The notes: a model not told the origin generated them from the sequence alone. A DNA stretch of 64,000 nt from a bacterium (GCA_021787535.1 JAJYLR010000002.1:24556-88555), one strand, 5' to 3'. Numbered from the stretch's first letter, positions 44,335 to 62,497 are shown. Numbers and translations: made by a program.

Positions 44335-44596
44335 TCATGGAATTTATTTTGGGAAGTTGTACTGGTGATTTGCGACAGCCAAGGATGCCAATACATATCT
44401 TCATACTTATCCTTAACCTTGGATAATTTATATCTGACATGCCTGATAGACTAGCTGTTCGGGGGGTTGGCCCTTGGCCGATTGAAATTTCTTGCTAAAA
44501 ACTGAGATATTCCGCACATTATCGCTGATTAATATATTAATATATAAATATTAGCGTAGTGATTTTTTGAAGATTTCAGTTCAAAATTGGCCAAAA

Positions 44597-44620
44597 ATAG
44601 TGTCAGTAAGCTGACACTAT
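44597..44620. promoter_or_regulatory. perfect 24-bp palindrome ATAGTGTCAG-taag-CTGACACTAT (candidate operator)
   Basis: 10-bp perfect inverted arms about 125 nt upstream of the WecA-like gene. Half-site shared with the palindromes at 52676, 53854 and 53900. Confidence 0.5.
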
Positions 44621-44743
44621 TTGAGGATTGTTTTTAATTAATCTTTGGATACGAAGTAATCAGCCTTCTGGTGAAGCCCTACAAGATTTGCCGGGAAGTT
44701 TGCTGTAGCAAAGCGAGCATAAAAGTAGTATAATAGCTCTCAC

Positions 44744-45751
44744 ATGATAGAAGTTTTGGTTTTTAGTTTAGTGCTTAGCTACCTTCTTTGTATCGCTGTC
44801 AGAAAAGCCCTCATACATTTCAATGTTTTGGCAGCGCCGAGCGAGAGAAAGGTTCATAAGGAAGCTATTCCGGAAGGCGGGGGAATAGCTATTTTTATTA
44901 CGGTTATTTTGACCTCTCTCTTATTTGCGGGCTTTCACAGAGAGTTTCTTGGCTTCTATGTCGGGGCGACTCTCATGTTCATAATGGGGCTTATTGATGA
45001 CGTTTTCGACATTCGAGCCAGGTATAAGCTTCTGGGGCAAATAGCGGCGATCGGACTTGCGATGTATCTAGGGCTCACTATTGAATTTGTCACCGGGCGT
45101 GACAGCGTTGTGCACACTGGTATTTTTTCTATTCCGCTTACATTTCTCTGGCTGCTTGGCATCACCAACGCCATTAACTTAATTGACGGTCTGGACGGCT
45201 TATCCGGAGGAGTAGGATCGATCGTGGCTGTTGTGCTTGGAATAGTGGCTCTGGGGCAAGGCAGAGGAGATGTGGCAACGATTGCCTTCATATTAGCCGC
45301 AGCGACTATAGGATTCTTGCCTCATAATTTTTCTGGAAAGAAAAAAATGTTCATCGGAGATACCGGATCACAGTTTTTAGGATTTTCTCTCGCCGGTTTG
45401 GCTATTCTCGGAGTGACTAAAGTCGCGGCCACCTTTGTTATCTTGGCGCCGGTTATGATTTTAGCAATTCCGATCTTTGACACGGTTTTTGCCATAATCC
45501 GCCGTACTAAAAACGGCCAGAAAATCTTTGTGGCTGATCGAGGGCACCTTCACCACCGTCTGCTCGACCTGGGCTTTACAGAAAAGAAAGCCGTAACCTT
45601 TATCTATTATGTCACTGTACTTCTTGGCTTTGTAGCTATTTTTTCAACTACCTTGAGACCAAAGGACGCTGTGATACTTTTCGTTATCACTGTGGGAATC
45701 ATTGCGGCTCTTTCTTTCATGTTAGCCCGCCAGCATCGGCTGAAAAAATAG
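44744..45751 (+). CDS. MraY/WecA-family polyprenyl-phosphate N-acetylhexosamine-1-phosphate transferase
   Basis: DDVFDIRARYK, NAINLIDGLDGL, multi-TM, 335 aa. Confidence 0.8.
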   Translation: MIEVLVFSLVLSYLLCIAVRKALIHFNVLAAPSERKVHKEAIPEGGGIAIFITVILTSLLFAGFHREFLGFYVGATLMFIMGLIDDVFDIRARYKLLGQIAAIGLAMYLGLTIEFVTGRDSVVHTGIFSIPLTFLWLLGITNAINLIDGLDGLSGGVGSIVAVVLGIVALGQGRGDVATIAFILAAATIGFLPHNFSGKKKMFIGDTGSQFLGFSLAGLAILGVTKVAATFVILAPVMILAIPIFDTVFAIIRRTKNGQKIFVADRGHLHHRLLDLGFTEKKAVTFIYYVTVLLGFVAIFSTTLRPKDAVILFVITVGIIAALSFMLARQHRLKK

Positions 45752-45898
45752 TCTGGAATTCCCTTTAAGTTTGTGCTAATATATTTTTGACGAGGGGTTT
45801 CTGGAAAGAAGCTTTTTTTAAATCCCGCGCACTATTTGCAAAATGCGGGGCAAGCAAAAATTAAGGTTAAGTTTTACATAAGAAAGGAACAAAAAGGA

Positions 45899-47917
45899 AT
45901 GAACAGTTATCTTCTGTTTGCGCTAGGCGCTTCAGCTGCCAGTATTTTATACGGCATATATCTTATCAAATGGATTTTAGGCAAAAGTGATGGAAATGAC
46001 AAAATGAAAGAAATCGCATCCGCGATCCAGGAAGGCGCTAAAGCATATTTAAACAGGCAATACAAAACTATATTCTTAGTAGCGATTTTGGTTTTCGGAG
46101 CTCTCCTTTTTACCTTGGGAGTGAACACGGCTTTCGGCTTTTTAATCGGTGCAGCAGCTTCGGCATTGGCCGGCTATATCGGGATGAATATCTCAGTAAG
46201 AGCTAACGTCAGGACGGCCGAAGCGGCTAAAAAAGGTATGAAAGAAGCGCTTGAAGTAGCGGTAAAAGGCGGTGCCGTCACCGGATTTTTAGTAGTCGGG
46301 CTGGCGCTTCTTGTTATTACCCTCTTCTGGATGGTTACGCATGATGCCAAAGCTCTCGTCGGTCTTGGTTTTGGGGGCTCTTTGATTTCCGTTTTTGCCC
46401 GTCTTGGCGGAGGTATTTATACCAAAGGCGCCGATGTGGGCGCTGATCTCGTCGGCAAGGTTGAGGCCGGCATTCCGGAAGACGATCCTAGAAATCCGGC
46501 TGTTATCGCAGACAATGTCGGCGATAATGTCGGCGATTGCGCCGGGATGGCGGCCGATCTTTTTGAAACTTACGCCGTCACAGCCGTAGCGGCAATCCTA
46601 CTGGGCACGCTTGTATTCGGCGACTTTAAAAATGCGGTTTATTATCCGCTTGTGATTGGCGGAGTTTCCATTGTCGCTTCTGTGATTGGCTCGTTTTTTA
46701 TCAGGATGGGAAACAGCAAAAATATCATGGGCGCGCTCTATAAAGGATTGATAGTCTCTGCCGGCATTTCGGCGATAGCATTTTACTTTGTGACTCAAAA
46801 ACTCATGACAGGAAACGGCCTTTACACTCCTGAGAATCTCTACTTTGCTTCCCTGATCGGCTTAGTCGTAACCGCAGGCATGGTTATTATTACCGAATAC
46901 TTTACTTCCACTAAATACAAGCCGGTTAAGTCAATTGCGAAATCTTCTGAAAGCGGCCATGGCACTAATATTATTACCGGGTTGGCTGTTAGTATGAAGT
47001 CCACTGCTTTGCCGGTTCTTTTAATAGGTGCGGCAATTATTGTTTCCTTTAGTTTAGCCGATATTTACGGGGTGGCCGTAGCGGTCATGAGCATGCTTTC
47101 GATGGCGGGAATTATTATTACAATCGATTCTTACGGTCCTATCACGGATAACGCCGGCGGAATAGCCGAGATGGCCGAACTGCCGGCTAAAGTCAGGGCT
47201 ATCACCGATCCTTTGGATGCAGTAGGAAACACAACCAAGGCGGTGACCAAAGGTTATGCCATCGCTTCTGCGGGACTTGCGGCAATAGTCCTTTTCTCGG
47301 CCTTTACGGAAGAGCTTGCCAAAGCCGGAGGTGTCAAGATCAACTTTACCATTTCTGATCCTTATGTTCTCGTCGGGCTTTTTCTGGGCGGACTTCTGCC
47401 TTATATCTTTGCAGCCCTTTCCATGGAAGCGGTTGGTAAAGCGGCTGGCGCCGTTGTGGCTGAAGTAAGAAGACAGTTTAAAGAAATTAAAGGCATCATG
47501 ACCGGCAAAGCGAAGCCCGAATATGGGAAATGCGTGGATATCGTTACAAAATCAGCCATCAGGCAAATGATTATGCCGGCCCTTTTGCCTGTGCTTGCGC
47601 CTATTGTGATAGTGATTATCGGCAAAGCCCTGGGTGATGAGGTAGCGCCGAAAATGATCGGCGGTTTGCTTGTCGGCTCTATTGTTACCGGAATCTTTGT
47701 GGCCATCAGCATGACTTCAGGCGGAGGCGCTTGGGATAATGCTAAAAAATACATCGAGGACGGGAACTACGGCGGCAAAGGATCGCTGGCCCATCAGGCC
47801 GCCGTGACCGGAGACACGGTAGGAGATCCCTATAAAGATACTGCCGGACCGGCCATCAATCCGATGATCAAGATCTTAAACATTGTTGCGCTGCTGCTTG
47901 TAAGCTTGATGTTCTAA
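45899..47917 (+). CDS. hppA: membrane H+-translocating pyrophosphatase, K+-independent type
   Basis: 16 TM. GNTTKA (Lys at the position diagnostic for K+ independence), DNVGDNVGD motif. Start chosen at Met 45899 (MNSYLLF). Confidence 0.9.
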
Positions 47918-47934
47918 AATCTTATTATCCTTTA

Positions 47935-47962
47935 AAAGGGCCCGCATAAGGGTCCTTTTTTA
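47935..47962 (+). terminator. rho-independent terminator after hppA
   Basis: AAAGGGCCC-gcataa-GGGTCCTTT hairpin followed by a T-run. Confidence 0.65.
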
Positions 47963-48023
47963 GCCAAAGAAAAAACGCTTATTGTTTACTGGGAAGCTTT
48001 TTAAGTGTTATATTAATGAAAGA

Positions 48024-48245
48024 ATGCCTATGCGTATAACAAAAGTGACAGTCGAGAAATTAGATTCGGATTTTGCCGTTTTTCGAGCCGGTGAAATCAG
48101 TTTTGAGGTGCCGAGGGCGCTCTTGCCTGACAACGCAGAAGAGGGCGCTGTGCTTTATTTGGATGTGAAAAGCGATGAAGAAGCCGCGCTTACCCAAGAG
48201 GGCTTGGCGAAAGCAATACTGGGTGAGGTATTAAAGGAAGGTTAG
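48024..48245 (+). CDS. DUF3006-like small protein
   Basis: RITKVTVEKLDSDFAVF..EISFEVPRALLP..EGAVLYLD pattern. Start ambiguous between 47982, 48024 and 48030. Confidence 0.5.
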   Translation: MPMRITKVTVEKLDSDFAVFRAGEISFEVPRALLPDNAEEGAVLYLDVKSDEEAALTQEGLAKAILGEVLKEG

Positions 48246-48248
48246 ATC

Positions 48249-50018
48249 ATGGAGGCGCATAAAACAGTTGCAAAAAAGCAAAACCAAAGCTGGCGTGAAG
48301 ACAAAAGAGTAATGTATGGATACATTGCCTTATTTGTCTTGGCTCTTATCTATGTCGACGCGCTTTTTTATAATTCCGTAAGGTATGAAGATAGAATTTA
48401 TCCCGGGATAAAGATTGCCGGCACAGATGTAGGGGGGGAAACTAGAGAAGAGGCGGCTCGGCGGATTGCTGAAAAAGTAAAATCCTCCAGCAGTGATATT
48501 GTTTTGAAAGGAAGCCACAGTTACACATTTAGCAAGGAAGATTTGGGTGTTGCCTATGATATCCCAAAGACTGTCGATCATGCTTTTAGCATAGGCAGAG
48601 ACAATGATTTAAATCCGATTAAAAAATATCACGAGGATGTGCCCTTGGCGGTGAATCTTGATTCTGATAAAGTCACAGGTGCTCTGATGGATGTTACCCA
48701 AAAAGAGAATCGAGGTGTTGAAGATGCAAGTGTTTTCATGAGAAACGGCAAACTTCAAACCGAGAAAGAACAAATTGGCAAACGTGTTCTTCTAGGAGAA
48801 AATGTCCGGATGATCCAGGACGGACTTAGCGGACTTGATGATAGTTTTAATCTCAAAATCCGCAATATGGATCCTGCTGTTACAGGGGCGGATATTAACT
48901 CGGCGAAAGATCAGATTCAAAACGCCTTGTCGCAAAAGCTTGTTCTTCAAAATGTCGGGGAAAAATATGTTTTAAATGAGAAAGATATCGCCGGTTTTCT
49001 CTCTTTTCAGTCAAGCAGCAGCAGTTCCCTTGCATATGCTACCAATTTCTCGCAAATTTTTCCGAATGTTGTTCAGGCAGTTCGGGTATCATATGACAGA
49101 AAGGCGATCAGGGATTGGGCGGTTAGGTTTTCCGGCCACATAAACCAGGATCCGAAAAATGCAAAGTTGGCTATGAACGAAGGGGGCTTAACCGTTGTCG
49201 CTTCGAGCAAAGATGGGGTGAAAGTTAATGCAGAAGAACTAACCGATCGGATAAAAGACGCTCTGGTTAATCAAAAACAAACTGTCGATGTTCCTGTTGA
49301 TACCATAAAACCTGAGGTCTCAAGCGATAATTTGGATAAGCTGGGCCTGAAAGAACTAGTTTCGACCGGCTGGACTGACTTCTCTGGTTCGCCGGCGAAT
49401 AGAATTCATAATATTCAAGTCGGTGCGGCAAAATTTAATGGAGTTCTTATAAAACCGGGCGAGGATTTCTCGTTTGACGATACTCTGGGTAATGTTGATG
49501 CTTCTACCGGTTATTTGCCGGAGCTGGTGATACTCAAGGATAAAACAGTGCCTGAGTACGGCGGGGGGCTTTGCCAAGTGTCGTCGACTGCTTTTCGGGC
49601 GGCGCTAAATGCGGGTCTGCCTATTTTAGAACGAGCTGCACATGCTTATCCAGTCGGATACTATAAGCCATATGGGGTTGATGCTACTATTTATCTGCCT
49701 TCTCCGGATTTAATCTTCAAAAATGACACGCCGGGATACATTCTCATTCAAACCAGAATTGCCGGCAACAAACTTTATTTTGATTTCTACGGCACCAAAA
49801 AGCCGGGAAGCATCAAATTTGCCGGTGACGAGAACGCTACTCAGGGAGTTTCATCTACAGTAGAAGGTATTACCCCGACTATTACAGAACAAGACGCGCG
49901 TGGCCCCAAATCTTTTACGGCTACCTTTTACAGGTTTATTTATGATACGGCCGGCAATCTGATCAAGAAAAACTATTGGGTTTCCAAGTACGATTCTCCG
50001 GACAAATACCCTCATTAG
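48249..50018 (+). CDS. VanW-family protein with N-terminal TM anchor
   Basis: C-terminal VanW core (FSFDDTLGNVDASTGYLPELVI..EYGGGLCQVSSTAFRAALNAGLPILERAAHAY). Confidence 0.8.
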   Translation: MEAHKTVAKKQNQSWREDKRVMYGYIALFVLALIYVDALFYNSVRYEDRIYPGIKIAGTDVGGETREEAARRIAEKVKSSSSDIVLKGSHSYTFSKEDLGVAYDIPKTVDHAFSIGRDNDLNPIKKYHEDVPLAVNLDSDKVTGALMDVTQKENRGVEDASVFMRNGKLQTEKEQIGKRVLLGENVRMIQDGLSGLDDSFNLKIRNMDPAVTGADINSAKDQIQNALSQKLVLQNVGEKYVLNEKDIAGFLSFQSSSSSSLAYATNFSQIFPNVVQAVRVSYDRKAIRDWAVRFSGHINQDPKNAKLAMNEGGLTVVASSKDGVKVNAEELTDRIKDALVNQKQTVDVPVDTIKPEVSSDNLDKLGLKELVSTGWTDFSGSPANRIHNIQVGAAKFNGVLIKPGEDFSFDDTLGNVDASTGYLPELVILKDKTVPEYGGGLCQVSSTAFRAALNAGLPILERAAHAYPVGYYKPYGVDATIYLPSPDLIFKNDTPGYILIQTRIAGNKLYFDFYGTKKPGSIKFAGDENATQGVSSTVEGITPTITEQDARGPKSFTATFYRFIYDTAGNLIKKNYWVSKYDSPDKYPH

Positions 50019-50122
50019 AAAATTTTCAATTTTCAAGTAACAATTTTCATTGAAATATCAGTCTCCCAAATTCCAAAGCATCAGGATAGTACACTAAACT
50101 GGTTTAGTGTACCAAAAAAGTA

Positions 50123-50306
50123 TTGCAAATGGATGATGGCTAAGATATAATTGCTTTTGTGAAAAGAAGAATGATTCAAACAAAATACTGGTTTACCTTC
50201 AGGGCTTAGCTTTGTAGGTTTCATATTTGTTGAATCAAAAGTAAGAGTCCTGCAAAGCGGGGCTATTTTTAATTCGAAAATAGCCCTTTTGTTGCAGGAT
50301 TTTTTG
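50123..50306 (+). ncRNA. candidate small RNA: sigma70 promoter, about 150-nt ORF-poor transcript, intrinsic terminator
   Basis: TTGCAA, 17 nt, TATAAT at 50123-50151. Terminator hairpin CCTGCAA..GGGCTATTTT/AAAATAGCCC..TTGCAGG at 50249-50298 followed by TTTTTT. Only a 12-codon ORF lies inside. Confidence 0.3.
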
Positions 50307-50343
50307 TACCTTTAAAAACAAGATTTCGGAGGAAACTAGAAGA

Positions 50344-50580
50344 ATGACAATGTTTTGCCAAGGAAAAATCAAGGTTGAATTCGGAAAGAAAGGGGTGAGT
50401 GTTTTGGATGACACAATCAGGAGAATTCTTGAGGCGCGCGTCAGAAATGCTGTTCGAGGGTACTATCATGCGAATGGGAACAAGGATGAAAAAATGAGCG
50501 AGCTGCTAGAATGCTCCAGTGAATTTCTGGCAAAAGGCGGTACTCTTGAAGAGCTGGAAAGTCTTACAAGCGGCAAGTAA
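50344..50580 (+). CDS. small hypothetical protein (78 aa)
   Basis: GGAGG RBS 11 nt upstream. No recognisable motifs. Confidence 0.35.
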   Translation: MTMFCQGKIKVEFGKKGVSVLDDTIRRILEARVRNAVRGYYHANGNKDEKMSELLECSSEFLAKGGTLEELESLTSGK

Positions 50581-50590
50581 AGGGGAATTG

Positions 50591-50800
50591 ATGTTTTATA
50601 TGAAAAGCGATAATGCTCCGATAATCGTTAGTGATTCTTTGACGGTAGAAGACTATGTCCGGCAGTTTCTTCAGTCGAGAAAAGCAGATAAGATAGTCCA
50701 AATGAGGAAACCAGGGCATAGACTGATTGAATTATTTTCAACATATACTGTTGATGAGATTCGCGCTCTTTTCGTCGAAATCGAAAAGGAAGTTTCTTGA
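50591..50800 (+). CDS. small hypothetical protein (about 69 aa)
   Basis: Follows the previous small ORF after a 10-nt gap. No recognisable motifs. Confidence 0.3.
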   Translation: MFYMKSDNAPIIVSDSLTVEDYVRQFLQSRKADKIVQMRKPGHRLIELFSTYTVDEIRALFVEIEKEVS

Positions 50801-50812
50801 GTGAAACGCCAA

Positions 50813-50840
50813 GGGCCGTCCGGTAACTGCCGGACGGCCC
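50813..50840 (+). terminator. GC-rich perfect hairpin (11-bp stem)
   Basis: GGGCCGTCCGG-taactg-CCGGACGGCCC after the small ORF pair. Weak U-tract, so may act as a transcript-stabilising or terminating structure. Confidence 0.45.
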
Positions 50841-50908
50841 AAAATCTTTGGATTGATTTTTTACGCTATTTTCGCTATAATATTCCAGTATTTGCACCTC
50901 AAAAATAA

Positions 50909-50983
50909 TCCCGGGTAGCTCAATGGTAGAGCAGTTGACTGTTAATCAATTGGTTGCCGGTTCGAGTCCGGCCCCGGGAGCCA
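50909..50983 (+). tRNA. tRNA-Asn (anticodon GTT)
   Basis: TCCCGGG/CCCGGGA acceptor, D-loop AGCTCAATGGTAGAGC, anticodon loop CTGTTAA, T-arm GGTTCGAGTCC, encoded CCA. Confidence 0.85.
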
Positions 50984-50987
50984 AGGT

Positions 50988-51008
50988 AACAGCTAATAGC
51001 TGTTTTTG
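50988..51008 (+). terminator. terminator hairpin after tRNA-Asn
   Basis: AACAGCT-aat-AGCTGTT followed by TTTTG. A second A/T-rich stem follows and may also serve the convergent - strand gene. Confidence 0.55.
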
Positions 51009-52612
51009 ATTTTAAACAGCTTTTTTTCTGCCACGATGATCATGCTGGTTACCGGATATTCGACCGGTATAAGCCGATCGTTTGCCATTTCGTAGAGCTG
51101 GACACTTTCTTCAACTCTCTTTTTGACAATCCAGGGATTTCTATAGGTTTTTGATTCCGGACGTACACTTAAACCTGCTTTTTCTAGCGCCTCTACCCAG
51201 TCGCTATATGCCCAGAAGCAGAAAGTTTCATGGGTTTCGCTTTGCCAGTTGTCGGTATAATCTTTTTTTGTCACAAATTCGCACGTGTCCTTTAGCTTTA
51301 TTTTTATTAAATTTTTACCGGATACCTTTACGATTTGGTACTTCATTTTATACCCTTCCCTAGCTCGAAAATCTTTGGAAAACCTTAAAAATCTACCGAA
51401 TGTTGAAAGTCCGTCTAAATATTCTTTGAATTTATTTCTATCTTCAATTTTCTTATCATAATCATTATTTCTGCCATCGGTTGCATTCAAATCCAAATAG
51501 ATTTCCTTTTCTCCGTCTTCGGGCCCTATAACATCGCGATTGATCCAGCGGCCCCCTTCGCTTAGTTCAATAGACCGATTTTTTATAAATTTCAAAAGAT
51601 CTTTCCGTCCGCCGTAAGATTCTATTTCATGAGTGAGAGAGGAGGTAAGGATAGTATCCATGCTATCCGGTTCGAAAACGAGTCCGGTAATGGCATTTTT
51701 TTTCATGAAAAATACATAATCGCTTGCAAAGTCGCCATTATCTTTTCTTTGCTCGCAAATGTCGTAAAGTTTTCTGGTAACCTCTACTCCATAAAAGTCA
51801 GATTCGGAGAGTTTAGGATCCTGGCAGGCCATTTTAATCCAAGAGCCGATTGCGCAGCCGATATCTCCGATCCTTCCCGGTTTAACATATGGTGATGTTT
51901 CAGCATATTTCTGTTCGATGCTATTATCCATTGAGCGAACATAAGTGTTGTAGTCTCTGGTTTCTGTCATGTCGCCATCATCGCCGAGAGTGGTATCGCT
52001 AAAAAGCAGCTGGATCTTATCTCCTAAATTATAATCCTCAAAAATCCTCTTCGAAGAAGAATGAGTTTTATCTTGATGTATCTTATTATTTCGCCAGTTC
52101 CCTCTAGAGTTTGCTATTTCCTCTATAATTTCCCAAGGCAGCAAATCGGCATATTTTTTAAAGTCATGAGATGCGAGTTCTACCGGTAAAATCTTGAAGC
52201 CAAGTTTTTGGTACATTCTAAGCACCGGCGTTGAGCAGGCGATAATCGTATTTTTTGGTGTTAGTTTAAGTTTTCCCTCGCTTTGGTTATTAATTCTCTT
52301 TAAAGTGTACTCTCCGAACCTATCCGTGGTTCCGACGTCATTTATAGCATATACCGTGGTTTTAACTGGAAGTTCTCTGGAAAAATCTTGAATTGCCATT
52401 GCTCTCTGATACAAGGGCAAAGGATTTCTTCTGGTATTTGCATGATTCGCAGAAGTGATGGCAAAGACAATGCCGTCAATTTCCCCTTCTTTTTTAAAGG
52501 ATTTTCCATCGAAATCTTTTTTTGATCCCAGACCATTTTTTGCTAAATCATAAAGATAACCAAACTGAAAATTGGTCAGAAGATGATGCCTGCCGGGGAA
52601 TAGAATATACAT
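50993..52612 (-). CDS. two-domain protein: N-terminal nucleotidyltransferase-like region fused to class I SAM-dependent methyltransferase-like domain
   Basis: Central GRIGDIGCAIGSW (MTase motif I-like) and downstream acidic motif. N-terminal ILFPGRHH..TSANHANTRR loosely resembles HxGH/SxxxxR nucleotidyltransferases. Function unknown. Confidence 0.4.
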   Translation of the reverse strand: MYILFPGRHHLLTNFQFGYLYDLAKNGLGSKKDFDGKSFKKEGEIDGIVFAITSANHANTRRNPLPLYQRAMAIQDFSRELPVKTTVYAINDVGTTDRFGEYTLKRINNQSEGKLKLTPKNTIIACSTPVLRMYQKLGFKILPVELASHDFKKYADLLPWEIIEEIANSRGNWRNNKIHQDKTHSSSKRIFEDYNLGDKIQLLFSDTTLGDDGDMTETRDYNTYVRSMDNSIEQKYAETSPYVKPGRIGDIGCAIGSWIKMACQDPKLSESDFYGVEVTRKLYDICEQRKDNGDFASDYVFFMKKNAITGLVFEPDSMDTILTSSLTHEIESYGGRKDLLKFIKNRSIELSEGGRWINRDVIGPEDGEKEIYLDLNATDGRNNDYDKKIEDRNKFKEYLDGLSTFGRFLRFSKDFRAREGYKMKYQIVKVSGKNLIKIKLKDTCEFVTKKDYTDNWQSETHETFCFWAYSDWVEALEKAGLSVRPESKTYRNPWIVKKRVEESVQLYEMANDRLIPVEYPVTSMIIVAEKKLFKIKNSY

Positions 52613-52675
52613 GATTTCTCCTTTTGTTTAATTCAATTATACATTTGCCTCTCGTGATTAAAAAGATTAATCAAC

Positions 52676-52694
52676 TGTGTTATAATAACACTAT
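52676..52694. promoter_or_regulatory. palindrome TGTGTTATAATAACACTAT in divergent promoter region (candidate operator overlapping a TATAAT)
   Basis: GTGTTAT/ATAACAC perfect inverted arms. Near-identical to the 53900-53920 palindrome. Confidence 0.5.
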
Positions 52695-52708
52695 TAATAG
52701 GAAAACAT

Positions 52709-53101
52709 ATGGAAAGAGAAAGACCAGGAGAAGAAATAAAAGAAGGTGATCAAAAAGATAGCTTACACCAAAGGGTAGAAAAAGTTCTTAAAAAAGCCCG
52801 AGAACACGATAATTTTCAAAGAGAAAATAGAGGCGGAGAACTTCCGGAAATATTTGCAGACATTGATCGGGAAGGATTTGTTAGTTTTGGAGTGATTTCA
52901 CATGGTCTTATGAATAAACAGAGCCAATATGCGAGCAGGTATCTTAATGAAAAATTTTCTGATGAATATCCATATCTTGGAGAAGATATCAGATTGAAGG
53001 GTGATCTTGATGATTATCATGCGTTTAGAATACATAAAGATGATATCGAAGAGTTTGTAGAAAGATATGAAAAATACATGAAAAAAATTGGAGCGATGTA
53101 A
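52709..53101 (+). CDS. small acidic hypothetical protein (130 aa)
   Basis: ORF with TAATG overlap to the downstream NrtR-like gene. No recognisable motifs. Confidence 0.4.
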   Translation: MERERPGEEIKEGDQKDSLHQRVEKVLKKAREHDNFQRENRGGELPEIFADIDREGFVSFGVISHGLMNKQSQYASRYLNEKFSDEYPYLGEDIRLKGDLDDYHAFRIHKDDIEEFVERYEKYMKKIGAM

Positions 53102-53787
53102 TGAGGAGAGAAGAGGACTTTATCCCATCGCCAGTTGCCACCGATGTTGTTATTTTTACAGTCATTGGGAATGAGCTCAATGTACTTTTAGTAAAAAGAG
53201 GAAAGTTTGCGCCTCTCGGCTGGTCCTTGCCTGGCGGATTTGTTGGACAAAGGGAAGATCTGGATGAATCAGCGGTTAAGACCTTGCGGGAGAAAACCGG
53301 TGTCAGAAATGTTTACCTCGAACAGCTATATACATTCGGTGAACCCAAACGAGATCCTCGAGGCAGAGTCATATCGATAGCTTATATGGCACTAGTTGAT
53401 GCTCAAATGGTCAAGCTTGAGAAGGGCAAAGATACAGAAGGCATAAAGTGGCTACCAGTCAAGAAACTGCCTCAACTTACCTTCGACCACAGACAAATTA
53501 TTGATTATGCAAAAAAGCGGCTTATTTGGAAGATGGAATATACCAATGTTGTTTTCTCGCTTTTGCCTACTTATTTTTCACTGACAGAGCTACAGAAGGT
53601 TTATGAGGCAATTCTTGAACGGGATCTGGACAAAAGGAACTTCAGAAGAAAGTTTTTATCTACAGGGCTCATTAAGGAGACGAAGAAGAAAAGCCAAGGT
53701 GCGCATAGACCGGCGACTCTCTATAATTTTGCCGAAAAGCGGCTTGAATATATTACAAATCCTTTTGGCCAATTTCTCAAAAAATAG
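53101..53787 (+). CDS. NrtR-like Nudix-wHTH transcriptional regulator
   Basis: Nudix box GGFVGQREDLDESAVKTLREKTGV. C-terminal about 70-aa winged-helix-like region (FSLTELQKVYEAILERDLDKRNFRRKF), as in the NrtR family. Confidence 0.6.
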   Translation: MRREEDFIPSPVATDVVIFTVIGNELNVLLVKRGKFAPLGWSLPGGFVGQREDLDESAVKTLREKTGVRNVYLEQLYTFGEPKRDPRGRVISIAYMALVDAQMVKLEKGKDTEGIKWLPVKKLPQLTFDHRQIIDYAKKRLIWKMEYTNVVFSLLPTYFSLTELQKVYEAILERDLDKRNFRRKFLSTGLIKETKKKSQGAHRPATLYNFAEKRLEYITNPFGQFLKK

Positions 53788-53826
53788 CTTTCTATAAGTT
53801 AAAAATAAAATTTTTCAAAAAAGTAC

Positions 53827-53854
53827 TTGACAGTGTTTTAAAAGGGAGTATAAT
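53827..53854 (+). promoter_or_regulatory. sigma70-type promoter upstream of PP2C/kinase operon
   Basis: TTGACA, 16 nt, TATAAT. The -10 overlaps the palindrome TAGTGTCACATATACACTA. Confidence 0.6.
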
Positions 53855-53872
53855 AGTGTCACATATACACTA
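53854..53872. promoter_or_regulatory. palindrome TAGTGTCA-cat-ATACACTA (candidate operator at -10/+1)
   Basis: AGTGT/ACACT inverted arms immediately at the -10 of the promoter. Confidence 0.5.
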
Positions 53873-53899
53873 ATAACGTGTGTTTTTAAAAAATAAAAG

Positions 53900-53920
53900 A
53901 TAGTGTTATAAAAACACTAT
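53900..53920. promoter_or_regulatory. palindrome ATAGTGTTATAAAAACACTAT (candidate operator)
   Basis: 8-bp perfect inverted arms. Same half-site family. A third reversed copy ACACTTAGTGT lies at 53933-53943. Confidence 0.5.
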
Positions 53921-54030
53921 TAAATAATCAAAACACTTAGTGTATATGAAACAATTACAAAGGGGCGATCATATCAAACTGATGAGAACTTTGACAAAAG
54001 AATCGCTAAAACCTATAGAAAGGAACCGAA

Positions 54031-54762
54031 ATGGAGCTCTTACGAATAAGGGGAGGTAGAGTCATAGGAAGGCAACATTCTTTGGCAGGCAAGAACAGTC
54101 AGGATGCTTATCAAATCTATGAGCCAGAGATAATAACTTCATTATTCTCAGAGCCCAAAGTGTTTCGAGCGGGTATTCTCTCTGATGGATGCGGAAGTAC
54201 CAAGACCAGTGAGGTTGGGGCAAACCTTATCGTTCAAAAGATAGTAAGCATTCTTTGCGAAAGCAAAGTTGTGAGAATGTGCCGGAGATGGTCTCTGGAG
54301 GAGATTATTGATTACATTGAGGATTCAACATATGAGTTTCTCGATGAACTCTCAAGGGGCTGGCGGCAAATTCCATTTGTCCAAGATAATCTCTTGGCTA
54401 CTATTCTAGGGTTTGTAACTAATGGGAAAAAGCTGGTGATATTCTCAAGCGGTGACGGAACAATATTTCTTGATGATGATGTTCTTGTTATTGATGAGGA
54501 TAACACACCATCCTACTTTGCCTATCGTTTATTCGAGAAGCAAGTCAGTTTTAAGAGGATAGAGGTTGATCTGCAAAAAGTGCAGAGAGTTGCGATAGCA
54601 AGTGACGGCTTTGAACCGGAGCTTATAAATGAGTTCTGGGGCAAAGAACATCCAAATGGGGTTCAACGTCTCTTGAACGTTTATTCAAAGAAAAAGCACT
54701 TTTTGGATGATGCAACCTTAATAACTCTCGAGAAAATTCAGGGGGAAGGAGGTAGAAAATGA
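54031..54762 (+). CDS. PP2C-family Ser/Thr protein phosphatase
   Basis: PP2C motifs GRQHSLAGKNSQDAY, LSDGCGST, IASDGFEP, and a C-terminal Asp (LDDATLITLE). Confidence 0.65.
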   Translation: MELLRIRGGRVIGRQHSLAGKNSQDAYQIYEPEIITSLFSEPKVFRAGILSDGCGSTKTSEVGANLIVQKIVSILCESKVVRMCRRWSLEEIIDYIEDSTYEFLDELSRGWRQIPFVQDNLLATILGFVTNGKKLVIFSSGDGTIFLDDDVLVIDEDNTPSYFAYRLFEKQVSFKRIEVDLQKVQRVAIASDGFEPELINEFWGKEHPNGVQRLLNVYSKKKHFLDDATLITLEKIQGEGGRK

Positions 54763-56606
54763 AAGTCGTAGTCCAGGGGAAGGCGATCAATCTCAATCCG
54801 AAAGACGTACTGGGAACCGGCGGTGAGGCAGTAGTGATCAAGAAAGGCAAAGCGGCATACAAGATATTTCACCAGCCGAGTAGAGAAAAAACACAGAAAC
54901 TCCAATCCCTTCTCAAGAAAAGACTGCTCCTGCCAGATCGGGTACTTGCGCCTCTTAAACTGGTAAAAGCGGCAGGCGGCGGCGGAGTGATTGGATATAT
55001 GATGCCGCTTGCTGATCCGGGAGCAGAACCGCTGGCAAAACTGAGCAATCGGAACTTTAGAAAGACTAGCAGGATCAACATCAAAGACGTTACCGATATC
55101 TTCTTGGACACGTATAGAACAGTTGAAAAACTTCACTCGGCCGGCTTCGTGGTAGGAGACTTAAATGACTTAAATGAGATTTTTCTGGGAGATAAAGTCT
55201 ACTTTATAGATGTAGACAGCTTTCAGTTTGATCGGTTTTCCTGCCAGGTGGCAACAGAGCCATTCTTAAGTCCGACTCTCTATAATAAAGACCTGACCAA
55301 CGGTTTGGTTTTTACTCCGGAGACGGATTGGTACAGTTTCGCTGTTCTGTTATTCCGTTCACTGCTTCTGGTTCATCCTTATGGTGGTGTTCACCCCAAG
55401 ATAAATCAACTGACCGAAAGGGTAAAAAAGAGGGTAACCGCATTTGACAAAGATGTGCGTTATCCGAAATTTGCCCTAAACAGAGAAATACTTTCTGACG
55501 AGCTGCTTGACTACTTCGAGAAGACTTTCGAGAAAGGCCGTATAAGCCAATTCCCAAAGAACATTCTCGAGCAGTACGATGGCATTCTAATCAAATGCTC
55601 TAAGTGCCATGATTATTTCCCTAACAACAGGCGTCAATGTCCGGCATGCAGTACAAAGTCGGCGTTTGTAATAAACCAGAAGATAATCCTCGACTATGAG
55701 ATATCTCTGATTACTGAAACGCTCGGACAGTTTGTCTATTCCAAACTAGTTGGCAATAAGCTTTACGCTATTGCCTACGAAGATGGTATGGCAGTACTGC
55801 ATACATGGAAGAAAGGAGAGAAAACGCAAAAAACAGTCCTTTTTCCAGTAGCTCGGGATCTGGGCTTTGACATCGCCTTCGACAAGTTAATTCTGTCGAG
55901 AAAGGGCTCTAAGCAACTGATAGTTTTAGATGCAAATGATGGTTCGGTATTTACAAAAACCACGACCGATTTGTTCCAAAACTATCCGATAAAAGCCGGT
56001 ACCCATGATTCGCTGTACAGAACAGCCGGCGGTATTCTCCTAAAGTCAGAAATGATGGCAGGGAATCTCGTAAGCAGGACTGTTTCCACCATAGCCGATG
56101 AACAGACCTGGTTTCACGGAGAAACTGTTCAGGGTAAAGAAAAACTAGCAGTGGTTAGCCGGATCTTTGACAAATGGGTCTACCGGGTCTTGGTAGATGG
56201 TGCCAGCTATGAAGCTGATGTTAGGGAGCTCGAAAAAGGCGAGAAGCTAGTGTCTCTAAACGCCCGTTTCGATACAAAGGGCGCTCTTGTTATCCGTGAG
56301 ACAAAAAAGAAGGGTAAAGCATTTGTCCTGCTTGATTATATAAGTGACAATGGCGTTTCTCTCTTCTACAGTCGGGAAACATACAACGACGAAGATCATG
56401 GTAACTTACAGGGTGCAACCTTAGGAAACGGTTCGCTTCTCTTTGCCACGGCAAATGGACTCAAAGGCAAGTCTCTCACGAAGGGCAGCACTTTTGAGTT
56501 CACTGGAACTGATAAGTTCATTCAGGGAAATGAAAAAATCCACGGACTTCAAGGAGGCATTATTGTCGTAAGTGATAATAAGGCATTCCTGATAAGAAAG
56601 AGGTGA
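54759..56606 (+). CDS. Hanks-type Ser/Thr protein kinase with zinc ribbon and about 330-aa beta-rich C-terminal domain
   Basis: Gly-loop LGTGGEAVV, Lys (AYKIF), catalytic loop GFVVGDLNDLNEIF, DFG-equivalent DVDSFQF, APE-like EPFLSP, DxWS (TDWYSF). CxxC..CxxC (CSKCH..CPAC). ATGA overlap with the phosphatase. Confidence 0.7.
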   Translation: MKVVVQGKAINLNPKDVLGTGGEAVVIKKGKAAYKIFHQPSREKTQKLQSLLKKRLLLPDRVLAPLKLVKAAGGGGVIGYMMPLADPGAEPLAKLSNRNFRKTSRINIKDVTDIFLDTYRTVEKLHSAGFVVGDLNDLNEIFLGDKVYFIDVDSFQFDRFSCQVATEPFLSPTLYNKDLTNGLVFTPETDWYSFAVLLFRSLLLVHPYGGVHPKINQLTERVKKRVTAFDKDVRYPKFALNREILSDELLDYFEKTFEKGRISQFPKNILEQYDGILIKCSKCHDYFPNNRRQCPACSTKSAFVINQKIILDYEISLITETLGQFVYSKLVGNKLYAIAYEDGMAVLHTWKKGEKTQKTVLFPVARDLGFDIAFDKLILSRKGSKQLIVLDANDGSVFTKTTTDLFQNYPIKAGTHDSLYRTAGGILLKSEMMAGNLVSRTVSTIADEQTWFHGETVQGKEKLAVVSRIFDKWVYRVLVDGASYEADVRELEKGEKLVSLNARFDTKGALVIRETKKKGKAFVLLDYISDNGVSLFYSRETYNDEDHGNLQGATLGNGSLLFATANGLKGKSLTKGSTFEFTGTDKFIQGNEKIHGLQGGIIVVSDNKAFLIRKR

Positions 56607-56665
56607 GGCAAGGCAAAAAAACTGATAGTCAAGTCCAATTCCTATTTCCAAAAAGGAGGAAAAAA

Positions 56666-57589
56666 ATGAAAGCGCCAGCTTTCTATGATCCTGCTATCAT
56701 TGGATCTCTTGAATTGCCAAAGGTCCAAGAAGCAACGGAAGAAGGCCGCCGGCAGAATGTAGCTCCGGCTGCCGAAGACAAGCAGAAAGTCATCCTGGTA
56801 AATGTAGATTTCCAGGTCGACTTTGTCTTCCCAAACGGCGCCCTTCCGGTAGCAAATGCTCTCGGCGATGTAGAAAGGACAGTTGACTGGGTTTTTAGGA
56901 ACCTGGATCAAGTAACGACCATCGCCTCGAGCATCGACTCGCATATCCCCGTTCAGATCTTCTATTCCACTTGGTGGGTAGATGAGAACGGGAACCCGCC
57001 TGCTCCATATACGATGATCACGCTGAAAGACGTGGAGGACGGCAAGTGGAGGCCTGTCGTTGATCCGGTGTGGACGCGGAAATATCTGACAGAGCTGGAT
57101 AAGGGCGGCAAGAAAACTCTGATGATCTGGCCTTTCCACTGCATGATCGGCACTCCCGGTCAGGCACTGGTGCCGAATCTGATGGAGGCAATTGCCTTCC
57201 ACTCCGCTGCCAGGCGTTCGCAACCGGTATACCTCGTCAAGGGCTCCATCCCTCAGACGGAAAACTACTCCATCGTTGAGCCCGAAGTAAAGTATCCCAA
57301 GCATCCGGCCGGTGACTTAAATACTCCGTTTCTGGACCTTGTGGCCAGACACGACCTGGTTTATGTAGCCGGCGAGGCGAAGAGCCACTGCGTGTTGGAT
57401 ACGATGCATTCCATCGTGAAACACTTTGCCGGTCAGGATGAAATCCTCGGCAAGATCCGTTTTCTGATGGACTGCACATCTTCGGTGGAGCATCCCGATG
57501 TTCCGTTCAATGAAATCGCCAATGCCGAACTCGCCGAAATGGAAAAGCTCGGCGTCCGTTTGGTCAAATCCACCGATCCGATCGGCTAA
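56666..57589 (+). CDS. nicotinamidase-like isochorismatase-family hydrolase (PncA-like, long form)
   Basis: D-x-Q-x-DF (VNVDFQVDF), conserved Lys, Cys nucleophile in AGEAKSHCVLDT. Strong RBS AAAAAGGAGG. Start at Met 56666. Confidence 0.55.
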   Translation: MKAPAFYDPAIIGSLELPKVQEATEEGRRQNVAPAAEDKQKVILVNVDFQVDFVFPNGALPVANALGDVERTVDWVFRNLDQVTTIASSIDSHIPVQIFYSTWWVDENGNPPAPYTMITLKDVEDGKWRPVVDPVWTRKYLTELDKGGKKTLMIWPFHCMIGTPGQALVPNLMEAIAFHSAARRSQPVYLVKGSIPQTENYSIVEPEVKYPKHPAGDLNTPFLDLVARHDLVYVAGEAKSHCVLDTMHSIVKHFAGQDEILGKIRFLMDCTSSVEHPDVPFNEIANAELAEMEKLGVRLVKSTDPIG

Positions 57590-57611
57590 TTTAAAAGGAG
57601 GAGGTGACAAA

Positions 57612-58388
57612 ATGTCTAATATGAACGATGTCAACGATCTCTTCGAAGAGGCGGTTGAGGACGGTCTGGATGAACAAGCGAGCCAGATCATGGTAGCAAA
57701 CCTCGACGCAGTGGCGCTCGCCGGCTGTCAAGGTACAGAGATCGACCTTATCCCTGAGGATGAGGTTACACTAGTCTCTGTCATTCACGATGGCAGCGGT
57801 TCTATGAGCGGCGCGCGCGACGTGGTAGTCCAGAGCTATGAAGGCTTGCTCGACGCCTTAAGAAATTCAAAAAAGGCAGAGAGCATCTTCATTTCTGACT
57901 GGATCTTCAACACTCAGTCGGACTTAGTCCACGACTACTTGCCGGTTGAGCAAGCACCTGATCTCGGTAACAGCTACTTTCCAGGCGGCGGAACAGCTCT
58001 TTATGACACTGTTATGAAGGGCTTAAGCGGTATCGTCGCTTATGGCCAGCAGCTGAGATCAAACGGTGTTCGTACCAAGAACGTAGTTGTTGTCTTTTCT
58101 GATGGTGAAGATAACAGCTCAGGGGTTACGAACACAGAAGTCAAAAAAGTCACGAAGGCCCTTCTCGCTCAAGAGACATTCATCCTTGCCTATGTTGGTT
58201 TCACCACATACGGCATGATGAATGAAGCTGAAGTACAGCGTCTTGCTGGCGAGATCGGTTTCAATGACGTTATCGCGGTTGGCACGAGCCCTTCCGAAAT
58301 CCGGAAGATCTTCCAACAGGTAAGCGATTCTATTATACAAGTTAGCCAGTCGGCTGTTTCGTCCGGCGGATTCTTCGCCGCACCTTAA
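57612..58388 (+). CDS. von Willebrand factor A (vWA) domain protein (TerY-like)
   Basis: MIDAS DGSGSM (DxSxS), later Thr and VVFSDGEDN. Strong RBS AAAAGGAGGAGG. Confidence 0.65.
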   Translation: MSNMNDVNDLFEEAVEDGLDEQASQIMVANLDAVALAGCQGTEIDLIPEDEVTLVSVIHDGSGSMSGARDVVVQSYEGLLDALRNSKKAESIFISDWIFNTQSDLVHDYLPVEQAPDLGNSYFPGGGTALYDTVMKGLSGIVAYGQQLRSNGVRTKNVVVVFSDGEDNSSGVTNTEVKKVTKALLAQETFILAYVGFTTYGMMNEAEVQRLAGEIGFNDVIAVGTSPSEIRKIFQQVSDSIIQVSQSAVSSGGFFAAP

Positions 58389-58452
58389 GCAGCCGGTAAC
58401 TAACCTGTAGCTGTTTCTTTAAAAGAAACAAGGGGAATAATGCTTTAGCAAA

Positions 58453-58521
58453 GCGCCCCGGGCAAACGCCCGGGGTTCCCCTCCCAACATGGTCCGAAAA
58501 GGATCACCAATATGTACCTTG
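58453..58521 (+). promoter_or_regulatory. conserved leader element copy A (hairpin 1 - GGGGTTCCC - hairpin 2 - CCAATATGTACCTTG box)
   Basis: CCCCGGGC-aaac-GCCCGGGG hairpin. GGTCC-gaaaa-GGATC hairpin. Conserved box directly 5' of the RBS of ORF 58561. Confidence 0.45.
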
Positions 58522-58560
58522 GAAACCAACTATAAACTTTCTTGATTAGGAGAGATGAAA

Positions 58561-58698
58561 ATGTCCGGTTCAGATACAAGTATGATAAGGCCTATGACCA
58601 TCCAAGAACGGCTCGCCAGACTGGAAGAAGAAATGGCAAATGTCAGATTGCAAATGGAAAGAGAGAGGAGTGAAGATGATCCGCGCAGAAACACTTAG
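58561..58698 (+). CDS. small protein (45 aa), unknown
   Basis: RBS AGGAGAG 6 nt upstream. Helical RLARLEEEMANVRLQMERER. Not in the ORF track (below the length cut-off). Confidence 0.35.
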   Translation: MSGSDTSMIRPMTIQERLARLEEEMANVRLQMERERSEDDPRRNT

Positions 58699-58960
58699 GA
58701 GAATCATCGAAGATGCCGAGAGAGATATCGCTTCTACCCGTAAGTTTCTCGCCAGACAGAAAGCAGAGCTCAAGATGATCGAAGGCACCTGTCTCCACTC
58801 CTTCACGAAGTTTGTCTACGATCCAATCGTGACAATACCGGAAGCCAAGTGGCAAGGCAAGGGCCTGGTCGCGCCGGATGACATAACCGTTCGTTTCGTC
58901 AAACAGTGTGTTATCTGCGGCATGACCCGGATGGTCGAGACAGAATCGGCTCTCAACTGA
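58676..58960 (+). CDS. small Cys-containing protein (94 aa), unknown
   Basis: RBS GGAG within the upstream ORF end. CLHSF..CVICGM possible zinc-binding pairs. Start taken at Met 58676 (the track ORF 58640 has no RBS). Confidence 0.4.
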   Translation: MIRAETLRRIIEDAERDIASTRKFLARQKAELKMIEGTCLHSFTKFVYDPIVTIPEAKWQGKGLVAPDDITVRFVKQCVICGMTRMVETESALN

Positions 58961-59013
58961 CAGTTGGTCAAAGCTATTCTTTTTAAAAAAGAATGGGATT
59001 AAAGCAATGGCAT

Positions 59014-59082
59014 GCGCCCCGATGGATATCGGGGTTCCCTTCACATTATGGCGCTAAAAAGCGCCGCCAAATATGTACCTTG
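59014..59082 (+). promoter_or_regulatory. conserved leader element copy B
   Basis: CCCCGAT-ggat-ATCGGGG hairpin. GGCGC-taaaaa-GCGCC hairpin. CCAAATATGTACCTTG box. 5' of the RBS of the Nudix gene. Confidence 0.45.
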
Positions 59083-59121
59083 ACAACAGAATAAGCTAAA
59101 ATAAGAACAAAGGAGAGGATT

Positions 59122-59682
59122 GTGAAGATAATTAATGAAGAAACCTTGGCCGAAACGCCGTTTCTAAAGCTTGTCAGACTGGATTGCATAAGTCCTTTAG
59201 GAAGACGCTTGAAGTGGGATGGTACAAGGAGAGAAAACCGAAGAGCAGTCAGTGTAGTTGCCGTTACAAAAGACGAAAAGATAATTCTAGTGCGGCAGCC
59301 TCGTTACTTAATTGGCAGTGAAGTGATCGAATTTCCTGCCGGTCTCCTGGATATTAAGGGAGAAAATATGATCAAGACAGCAAAAAGAGAACTTCTCGAA
59401 GAAACCGGCTATGAGGCGACAGATTTTACCATTCTCCTGGGAGGAGAGGAAGGACTTGTCAATTCTCCCGGTATGACAGACGAAAGATCGTCTCTTGTCG
59501 TATGTAAAAATGCCGTCAAAGCCGCTGAACCGCTGGAAAATGAAGAAACCAAACCCTTCCTGCTTGATTTAAAAGGGGCTTACCAAGAATTGAAAGAGTT
59601 AGCTCAAAGGGAAGAAGTGGCCTTTAAGGTTTTCGGTAACCTGGCCCTAGCGAAAGATTGGTATGAAGGGAGGAGAAAGTGA
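59122..59682 (+). CDS. Nudix hydrolase (ADP-ribose pyrophosphatase-like)
   Basis: Nudix box GLLDIKGENMIKTAKRELLEETGYE. GTG start with RBS AAAGGAGAGG. Confidence 0.7.
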   Translation: MKIINEETLAETPFLKLVRLDCISPLGRRLKWDGTRRENRRAVSVVAVTKDEKIILVRQPRYLIGSEVIEFPAGLLDIKGENMIKTAKRELLEETGYEATDFTILLGGEEGLVNSPGMTDERSSLVVCKNAVKAAEPLENEETKPFLLDLKGAYQELKELAQREEVAFKVFGNLALAKDWYEGRRK

Positions 59683-61632: not shown

Positions 61633-61692
61633 TTAAAACGGCGGGCGCTTCACATCAAGAAGCGCCCGCTCCAAAACCAAAGGGAGAAGAAA

Positions 61693-62468: not shown

Positions 62469-62497
62469 GGCCCCGCTATATGCGGGGCCATTTTCTG
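62469..62497 (+). terminator. rho-independent terminator after nadE
   Basis: GGCCCCGC-tatat-GCGGGGCC hairpin followed by ATTTTCTGATTTT. Confidence 0.75.

Follow-up and report, generated by a model that had tools for sequence, protein, structure and literature searches.

The nrtR locus

In a 64,000-nt stretch of DNA from a bacterium (GCA_021787535.1 JAJYLR010000002.1:24556-88555; "the window" below, with positions counted from its first letter) the gene for an NrtR-family repressor, nrtR, is accompanied by three palindromes of the form ATAGTGT-N7-ACACTAT, one at the promoter of its own operon and two at the start of a long downstream operon with genes for salvage of nicotinamide adenine dinucleotide (NAD). 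These three are predicted to be operators through which NrtR represses both its own synthesis and the NAD operon, and a fourth, more distant, palindrome appears to be a look-alike that stands outside the system. The features on which this turns are as follows.

44597-44620: site 1, ATAGTGTCAGtaagCTGACACTAT, a palindrome with a 10-bp stem and an N10 spacer
52658-52686, plus strand: promoter-like site of the nrtR operon, TTAAAA-17-TATAAT, with TG upstream of the −10
52674-52694: box 2, ACTGTGTTATAATAACACTAT, predicted autoregulatory NrtR operator, N7 spacer with the −10 hexamer in the spacer
52709-53101, plus strand: gene for a 130-aa protein, predicted to be co-transcribed with nrtR
53101-53787, plus strand: nrtR, a degenerate Nudix-like sensor domain with an NrtR-type winged helix
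53827-53854, plus strand: P1, promoter of the long operon, TTGACA-16-TATAAT, 12 of 12 consensus matches
53853-53873: box 3, ATAGTGTCACATATACACTAA, predicted NrtR box, N7 spacer, approximately −8 to +13 of P1
53900-53920: box 4, ATAGTGTTATAAAAACACTAT, predicted NrtR box, N7 spacer, approximately +40 to +60 of P1
53937-53957: weak fifth box-like site, TTAGTGTATATGAAACAATTA, 9.3 bits, inside the chance range

Judged by its sequence, the protein encoded at 53101-53787 is a clear NrtR-family member. Its Pfam matches are to PF21906 NrtR_WHD (8.8e-26, 90.3 bits against a cut-off of 27) and PF00293 NUDIX (5e-16, 59.4 bits against a cut-off of 21.1), and the NCBIfam model 'ADPR responsive transcriptional repressor NtrR' (NF050029) matches it at 9e-53. 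Among solved structures it matches best BtAraR (6.5e-40) and 3gz5, a Nudix-family chain from S. oneidensis (2.1e-32), with Protein Data Bank (PDB) alignments that span both domains (residues 13-213 in the case of BtAraR), and NadQ (PDB 7q91) matches the C-terminal DNA-binding domain at 3.7e-15. Three of the four RE..EE positions of its Nudix box are altered (G46-x5-E52-x7-K60 T61 L62 R63 E64 K65-x-G67); the Nudix motif of the M. smegmatis protein, MsNrtR, is likewise less conserved, and hydrolase activity was undetected there (PMC6800001). A scan of species-representative genomes with the window protein recovered relatives at no more than 56% identity.

Geometry and statistics of the palindromes

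The original prediction placed four palindromes in the window, and all four can be read back from the sequence at the coordinates given for them. They were taken to be one family of near-perfect dyad symmetry; instead they fall into two geometric classes. Boxes 2, 3 and 4 read ATAGTGT-N7-ACACTAT and are palindromic over 21 bp, GT falling at positions 6-7 and AC at positions 15-16, and the palindrome at 44597-44620 has an N10 spacer. The former geometry is that of published NrtR boxes, which are 21-bp palindromes with a GT-N7-AC core (PMC2330246), so that the comparison suggested with the prediction comes out in favour of the three N7 sites.

Exact matches to TAGTGT-N(4-12)-ACACTA number 3 in the 64-kb window where 0.00 are expected from 100 shuffles, and when up to 2 mismatches are allowed in TAGTGT-N7-ACACTA there are 6 against an expected 1.32, a count reached by none of the 100 shuffles. 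An independent measure comes from relatives, which are here contigs from other samples that bear NrtR homologues of 56-69% identity and that are designated by locus numbers. A weight matrix was built from the boxes of L005, L006, L007, L009 and L094, with the window and its closest relative L003 held out. Its three top matches in the window are box 4 (26.0 bits), box 3 (20.9) and box 2 (20.3), and the next best scores 9.3 bits; the maxima of 200 first-order-Markov random windows average 11.2 ± 2.0, the largest being 17.5 bits. It had been foreseen that a similar density of the motif within coding regions genome-wide would tell against an operator role, and within the 64 kb all three top sites are intergenic and no coding match scores near them. 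Spacing discriminates too: in 1.23 Mb of NrtR loci, TAGTGT-Nx-ACACTA with at most 1 mismatch was found 51 times with N7 and 0-5 times with each other spacing.

Placement on promoters

Two of the sites had been said to overlap TATAAT hexamers, and they do: the hexamer at 52681-52686 lies inside the spacer of box 2, and that at 53849-53854 covers the first 2 bases of box 3. The accompanying notion of four promoter regions was too generous, as boxes 3 and 4 share one promoter and site 1 is off any promoter-like site. On the assumption that transcription starts 7 nt past the −10, box 2 would run from about −20 to +2 of the promoter of the nrtR operon. Known NrtR sites either overlap promoter elements or lie past the promoter and ahead of the start codon, positions taken to suggest repression (PMC2330246), and boxes 2, 3 and 4 are all placed in this way. 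Such placement on what are predicted to be promoters is repressor geometry, and since box 2 encloses the −10 of nrtR's own promoter, NrtR is predicted to repress its own synthesis.

The leader that follows box 2 in the window is 15 nt, after which the 130-aa gene begins. A conserved small open reading frame in the leader of the long operon, at 53946-54059, was considered and rejected, its start codon being replaced by GTG-TAA in L003.

Conservation in relatives and beyond

Boxes are present at equivalent relative positions in L003, L005, L006, L009, L094 and L096. One box is directly upstream of the nrtR operon (the exception is L094, where nrtR is downstream of the module), and the downstream operon or operons are preceded by two or three. 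The autoregulatory boxes of the relatives are at the following positions.

L003: 8719-8741
L005: 5224-5246
L006: 2419-2441
L007: 9012-9034
L009: 8181-8203
L096: 1866-1888

The counterpart of box 2 is kept in all 6 of the relatives' alignments and also in L096. In 5 of 6 aligned loci and in L096 the autoregulatory box has TATAAT in its spacer (TAATAT in L006) and ends in ...ACACTATG; the first gene starts at the ATG in this end, so that a leaderless mRNA is implied for the relatives. Box 3 and both P1 hexamers are also kept, the hexamers being invariant, and the distance between the tandem boxes is 47-48 bp in the window (47), L003, L005, L009 and L096. Where the intergenic DNA is aligned the spacers vary, and what stands out between them as invariant is the −35, the −10 and the half-sites. 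The weak site at 53937-53957, which the original prediction did not list, is retained at the same place in L003 and L096, and four genomes share without change a lone GTGT at 53878-53882, between boxes 3 and 4; these two may be auxiliary half-sites or features of the leader.

The half-site extends well beyond close relatives. Beside NrtR homologues of 50-56% identity across phyla there are 33 matches of at least 12 of 14 positions in 1.06 Mb, against about 3 expected by a binomial estimate. In loci L010-L054 (L014 at 7942, L032 at 6456, L046 at 8644 and 8723, and L054 at 8675 and 8754, among others) TAGTGT-N7-ACACTA occurs some 0-1.2 kb from NrtR homologues of 43-56% identity, the hosts being DPANN and Asgard archaea, bacteria of the candidate phyla radiation, Elusimicrobia, Acidobacteria and metagenome-assembled gammaproteobacteria. 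Its occurrence beside such distant homologues suggests that the half-site is common to a very broad NrtR subfamily that includes archaea.

This conservation bears on two other explanations of the boxes. One is that the N7 palindromes are chance matches, or else RNA hairpins acting as terminators or attenuators, and it draws on their being inverted repeats rich in A and T and on the frequency of hairpins in intergenic DNA, where they lie. Against chance are matrix scores far above random expectation and the enrichment of N7 in NrtR loci; against hairpins are arms of only 7 bp, AT-rich at that, around a 7-nt loop, the position of box 2 upstream of the predicted start, because of which it is not transcribed, and half-site columns that are invariant, without paired changes, while the spacer varies. 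The explanation can be set aside as the least probable of all. The other is that the palindromes are read by a different protein, for instance the 130-aa product, with NrtR binding elsewhere. The 130-aa protein is without an assigned function and its gene shares an operon with nrtR in the window and in L003; however, the gene is absent from L005, L006, L009, L094 and L096, all of which keep the boxes, and the boxes co-occur with nrtR homologues across phyla and fit an NrtR-specific geometry. We regard this as very improbable, though a shade less so than chance or hairpins.

The palindrome at 44597-44620

Site 1 most likely is the core of a longer imperfect hairpin unrelated to the NrtR system. 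It is at the centre of the longest inverted repeat in the window, 44580-44606 / 44611-44637 (27-nt arms, 74% complementary), which when folded as RNA reaches −20.2 kcal/mol (z = −4.1). It sits in a 409-bp intergenic region, with further AT-rich palindromes at 44528-44549, and is some 110-135 bp upstream of the likely −10 of the wecA-like gene, the TATAAT at 44729-44734; the promoter consensus scan found no promoter-like site at site 1 itself. That TATAAT is only 10 nt before the ATG of the WecA-like gene (44729-44746).

The wider proposal, that all four palindromes are NrtR operators and that the WecA-like glycosyltransferase gene is in the regulon, has something to recommend it. Site 1 has the box consensus unaltered in each of its 7-nt half-sites, its left 12 nt (ATAGTGTCAGTA) recur as the left part of a genuine box of L006 (ATAGTGTCAGTATTACACTAA), and exact TAGTGT-Nx-ACACTA with a spacing other than N7 is expected only about 0.05 times per window by a base-composition estimate and was seen in none of the shuffles. 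However, the half-site centres are 17 bp apart rather than 14 (a spacer of 10 against 7). Read in the N7 register, site 1 scores −3.7 and −2.4 bits, and N10 is at background level in the 1.23 Mb of NrtR loci, with 2 occurrences (site 1 included) against 51 for N7. The site precedes the likely −10 by over 100 bp, and its position at the centre of the long repeat also counts against the proposal. The BtAraR dimer makes two-fold symmetric contacts with its operator over a fixed 25 bp (PMC4666351), so that a spacer longer by three base pairs is not expected to fit. For its N10 spacer, negative matrix scores, a spacing that is not enriched and its location off a promoter, site 1 was rejected as an NrtR box. 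Chance identity of both half-sites being itself unlikely, something like one chance in ten is left for some interaction with NrtR, and the inclusion of the glycosyltransferase gene in the regulon is correspondingly unlikely.

An intrinsic terminator at site 1 was also considered and rejected, as the terminator scan called 44465-44483 instead and the T-run after the stem is broken. Searched against Rfam at a permissive threshold, 44335-44745 and 53788-54040 gave nothing relevant. Elsewhere, downstream of a VanW-like gene, 50088-50112 is a perfect hairpin with an 11-bp stem, GTACACTAAAC-tg-GTTTAGTGTAC, in which the hexamers of the boxes are everted (ACACTA-N8-TAGTGT); an A-run and no T-run follows its stem.

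The operon downstream of boxes 3 and 4

The genes that follow P1 are these.

54031-54762, plus strand: PP2C phosphatase, first gene of the operon (PF13672, 1.6e-12)
54759-56606, plus strand: kinase-like protein, its kinase region followed by a CxxC...CxxC zinc ribbon (Pkinase 0.0065, Bud32/LanL models about 1e-5, sub-threshold)
56666-57589, plus strand: nicotinamidase-like cysteine hydrolase, 307 aa (PDB 2h0r, E = 0.012; several sources name homologues nicotinamidase)
57612-58388, plus strand: von Willebrand factor A (vWA)-like protein (PF00092 0.0011, sub-threshold; DGSGSM motif)
59122-59682, plus strand: Nudix hydrolase, NudE/ADP-ribose-pyrophosphatase-like (PF00293; NCBIfam NudE model 1e-14)
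59679-60479, plus strand: NAD kinase (family match)
60427-61632, plus strand: PncB-like, nicotinate phosphoribosyltransferase-like (NF005529 1.4e-21, sub-threshold; QRPTase_N 5.5e-4)
61693-62457, plus strand: NadE, NAD synthetase, last gene of the operon (PF02540, 6.9e-69)
62469-62489, plus strand: GC-rich terminator-like hairpin at the operon end (terminator scan)

Two small open reading frames are also within 54031-62457. Consensus scans of this interval showed neither a strong terminator nor a strong promoter, and with no convincing plus-strand terminator until 62469-62489, 54031-62457 is probably one unit. The 307-aa protein is likely, from the similarities listed, to be the PncA of the pathway; an alignment search of metagenomes with it returned no matches. 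The predicted regulon would thus have classical NrtR content (PncA-like, PncB-like, NadE, NAD kinase and an ADP-ribose-type Nudix protein), and the NAD pathways described as being under NrtR control (PMC2330246) match it. In L006 and L009 the NAD salvage genes come after NrtR boxes without the PP2C module, an arrangement that marks the NAD genes as the conserved core of the regulon.

The start of the operon, with its PP2C, kinase and vWA genes, is not found among the NrtR-regulated pathways of PMC2330246. It resembles the TerY-P triad, which consists of vWA, PP2C and a Ser/Thr kinase with a C-terminal zinc ribbon (Anantharaman et al. 2012, per PMC10542128), in that a PP2C, a kinase-like protein bearing a CxxC...CxxC zinc ribbon and a vWA-like protein are among the products of the early genes. 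It differs in that kinase (0.0065) and vWA (0.0011) fall below the Pfam cut-offs, with PP2C above, in that the nicotinamidase-like gene is between the kinase and vWA genes, and in that the module is inside an NAD salvage operon and not beside tellurite-resistance or restriction genes. None of the PADLOC models matched the PP2C, kinase, vWA, 307-aa or 94-aa proteins, which leaves a defence reading unsupported.

Between the window and L003 the PP2C/kinase/307-aa block has 84-92% DNA identity (54031-58388 in the window, 10934-14493 in L003), and at the protein level vWA shares 95% identity with its counterpart in L004 (14137-14913), a locus that carries the same NrtR as L003. The flanks are less alike, at 59-72% (nrtR 66%, Nudix 59%, nadE 65%, and also the 539-aa gene described below). 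Conservation of the block so far above that of its flanks suggests recent lateral exchange, with the promoter and boxes 3 and 4 included.

A structured RNA element within the operon

Two copies of an RNA element are inside the NAD operon of the window, and further copies are found in relatives.

58429-58524, plus strand: copy A, Rfam-unknown
58991-59085, plus strand: copy B, directly before the Nudix gene
L003: 15335-15432 and 15920-16012
L005: 10523-10616
L094: 11744-11828
L096: 8044-8142 and 9047-9141

The element is about 97 nt long and the eight copies are from five genomes. Its fold is a three-way junction, then a hairpin and then an invariant single-stranded GUACCUUG. Across the eight copies 95.5% of cells pair and 11 of the 23 pairs are changed on both sides; none of 500 shuffles comes up to what is observed, and in slid controls such pairs number 3 at most. 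The L096 copies, which were outside the building of the model, score at E ~1e-17. No match to the element was present in Rfam 15 at gathering score, with nothing relevant up to E = 10 in 58380-59130, and a DNA-pattern search of metagenomes for it gave no matches.

The element always precedes NAD-related or small genes. Those that follow it include CTP_transf_like (L096), phosphoribosyltransferase-like (L094, L005) and Nudix (window, L003, L096) genes. This constant position upstream of NAD-salvage or small genes makes it a candidate cis-regulatory RNA, most obviously a riboswitch or a leader that binds a protein.

Neighbouring genes

50909-50983: tRNA-Asn(GTT) gene, 10 bp from the end of the 539-aa gene
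50993-52612, minus strand: divergent 539-aa gene, nicotinamide mononucleotide (NMN) adenylyltransferase-like N-terminal part and class I S-adenosylmethionine (SAM) methyltransferase fold

The 539-aa protein is of a strongly conserved family, named 'transferase' by several sources, with about 55% identity among members from Bacteroidota, Spirochaetota and others. At the N-terminus its family profile has a weak match to archaeal NMN adenylyltransferase (1f9a, E = 0.006), and in its AlphaFold model (mean predicted local distance difference test score, pLDDT, 81) the C-terminal half has the class I SAM methyltransferase fold. The Chryseolinea soli homologue is encoded directly after an ADP-ribosylglycohydrolase gene. 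A link of the protein with NAD or ADP-ribose chemistry is plausible.

Box 2 had been proposed to serve a divergent promoter. This is supported for the nrtR side, where the −10 is in the box, and is uncertain for the 539-aa side, where a minus-strand extended −10, TGTATAAT, is at about 52636-52643 and box 2 is upstream of the gene's likely −35. Lying some 45-65 bp upstream of the likely start, box 2 does not imply direct repression in that direction. Membership of the 539-aa gene in the regulon is possible, its adjacency in the window, L003 and L096 being what speaks for it.

The 130-aa protein matched no Pfam, NCBIfam or PADLOC family. Its C-terminal ~75 residues match 353 representative proteins (E at most 1e-3), mostly small, and when 10 representative proteins with this ~75-aa domain were scanned no Pfam family was found on the domain (CSD and one sub-threshold match were elsewhere in them). 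Upstream of the tRNA-Asn gene the gene order differs from that of L003; past it the nrtR/NAD cluster is syntenic, as are the DsbD/thioredoxin genes, and the position of the tRNA-Asn gene may mark an island boundary.

Proposed mechanism and its standing

A dimer of NrtR would bind the three 21-bp palindromes ATAGTGT-N7-ACACTAT. Bound at box 2 it would shut the promoter of nrtR and the 130-aa gene, and in the repressed state boxes 3 and 4 would be occupied, with the start and early transcribed region of P1 blocked and the ~8.6-kb operon off. Consumption of NAD would raise ADP-ribose, or a close derivative, which would bind the catalytically degenerate Nudix domain. NrtR with its ligand would then leave the DNA, allowing expression of the salvage genes and of those that clear ADP-ribose. 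Autorepression and release by ADP-ribose have been shown experimentally for other NrtRs (PMC2330246, PMC6800001).

From the sites themselves, with their geometry, statistical excess, conservation and position on promoter-like hexamers, and from the protein's family, we put at roughly 0.85 the probability that NrtR represses its own synthesis and controls the NAD operon via boxes 2-4, with site 1 outside the system. What had been proposed earlier, a repressor operator for the adjacent Nudix-winged-helix protein, accordingly stands for boxes 2-4, on family, geometry, matrix and conservation, and falls for site 1 with its N10 spacer and negative score.

Several considerations weigh on the other side. 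The organism is uncultivated, and we infer that the protein binds and represses, what its effector is and how far the transcript reaches. The scans for promoters and terminators were simple consensus scans, and the distal NAD genes could have start sites of their own. With 179.2 bits against an equivalog cut-off of 400 for NF050029, the protein is a family member outside the curated equivalog subgroup, and since its nearest solved relative, BtAraR, answers to arabinose, belonging to this family does not identify the effector. The 47-48 bp between boxes 3 and 4 amount to some 4.5 helical turns, a distance that does not suggest in-phase looping.

The point about the effector can be taken further: the boxes may be NrtR operators and yet respond to something other than ADP-ribose, such as NAD, nicotinic acid adenine dinucleotide, nicotinamide riboside or a sugar, or to phosphorylation by way of the PP2C/kinase pair. 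The best PDB match is a sugar-sensing member of the family, M. smegmatis NrtR is additionally controlled by acetylation (PMC6800001), and the operon opens with phosphatase and kinase genes. Nevertheless it is for regulons like the one predicted here, of NAD salvage with an ADP-ribose-type Nudix protein, that ADP-ribose has been demonstrated as effector (PMC2330246), and for a sugar effector, sugar-utilisation genes are not nearby. Release by ADP-ribose is preferred, with another signal a minor but real possibility.

More speculatively, there may be a hitherto undescribed two-tier NAD-stress circuit with the NrtR boxes as its upper tier, in which an ADP-ribose-responsive NrtR would gate a TerY-P-like phosphorylation switch built into the salvage operon and the salvage genes would also be under the two-copy RNA, which could be a new riboswitch class with an NAD-related metabolite as ligand; we offer this tentatively and think it doubtful as a whole.

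By itself this is routine regulon reconstruction, which extends a known switch of NAD homeostasis to an uncultivated lineage, for whose annotation the weight matrix can be used. It also gives a clean example of spacing separating real operators from a look-alike hairpin. It further places a PP2C/kinase/vWA signalling module under an ADP-ribose-type repressor, and brings to light an RNA element supported by covariation, absent from Rfam and ahead of NAD salvage genes; the triad and the RNA are worth following up more than the operator.

Comparison with known systems

NadR, NiaR and NadQ also repress genes of NAD synthesis or salvage via palindromic operators at promoters. They do so with other sensor domains and operators (NadR, with NAD as co-repressor, binds TGTTTA-N6-TAAACA), and the NrtR protein is outside those families.

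BtAraR of Bacteroides thetaiotaomicron (PDB 5bs6/5dd4; PMC4666351) is closer. Its operator is a 21-bp semi-palindrome, and there are tandem sites before the main operon, 3 or 42 nt apart in Bacteroides, as compared with 47-48 bp from centre to centre here. It differs in sensing L-arabinose and controlling arabinose utilisation, whereas the context here is NAD metabolism.

The nearest systems are those of NrtR itself (Rodionov et al. 2008, PMC2330246; S. oneidensis SO1979, Synechocystis Slr1690; MsNrtR, PMC6800001). The half-site ATAGTGT is lineage-specific, the MsNrtR operator being GTTTTCGA-N7-TCGAAAAC (PMC6800001). Common to those systems and the one predicted here are a degenerate Nudix domain with a winged helix, a 21-bp GT-N7-AC operator on promoter elements, autoregulation, and a regulon of NAD salvage genes and universal NAD genes together with an ADP-ribose hydrolase.

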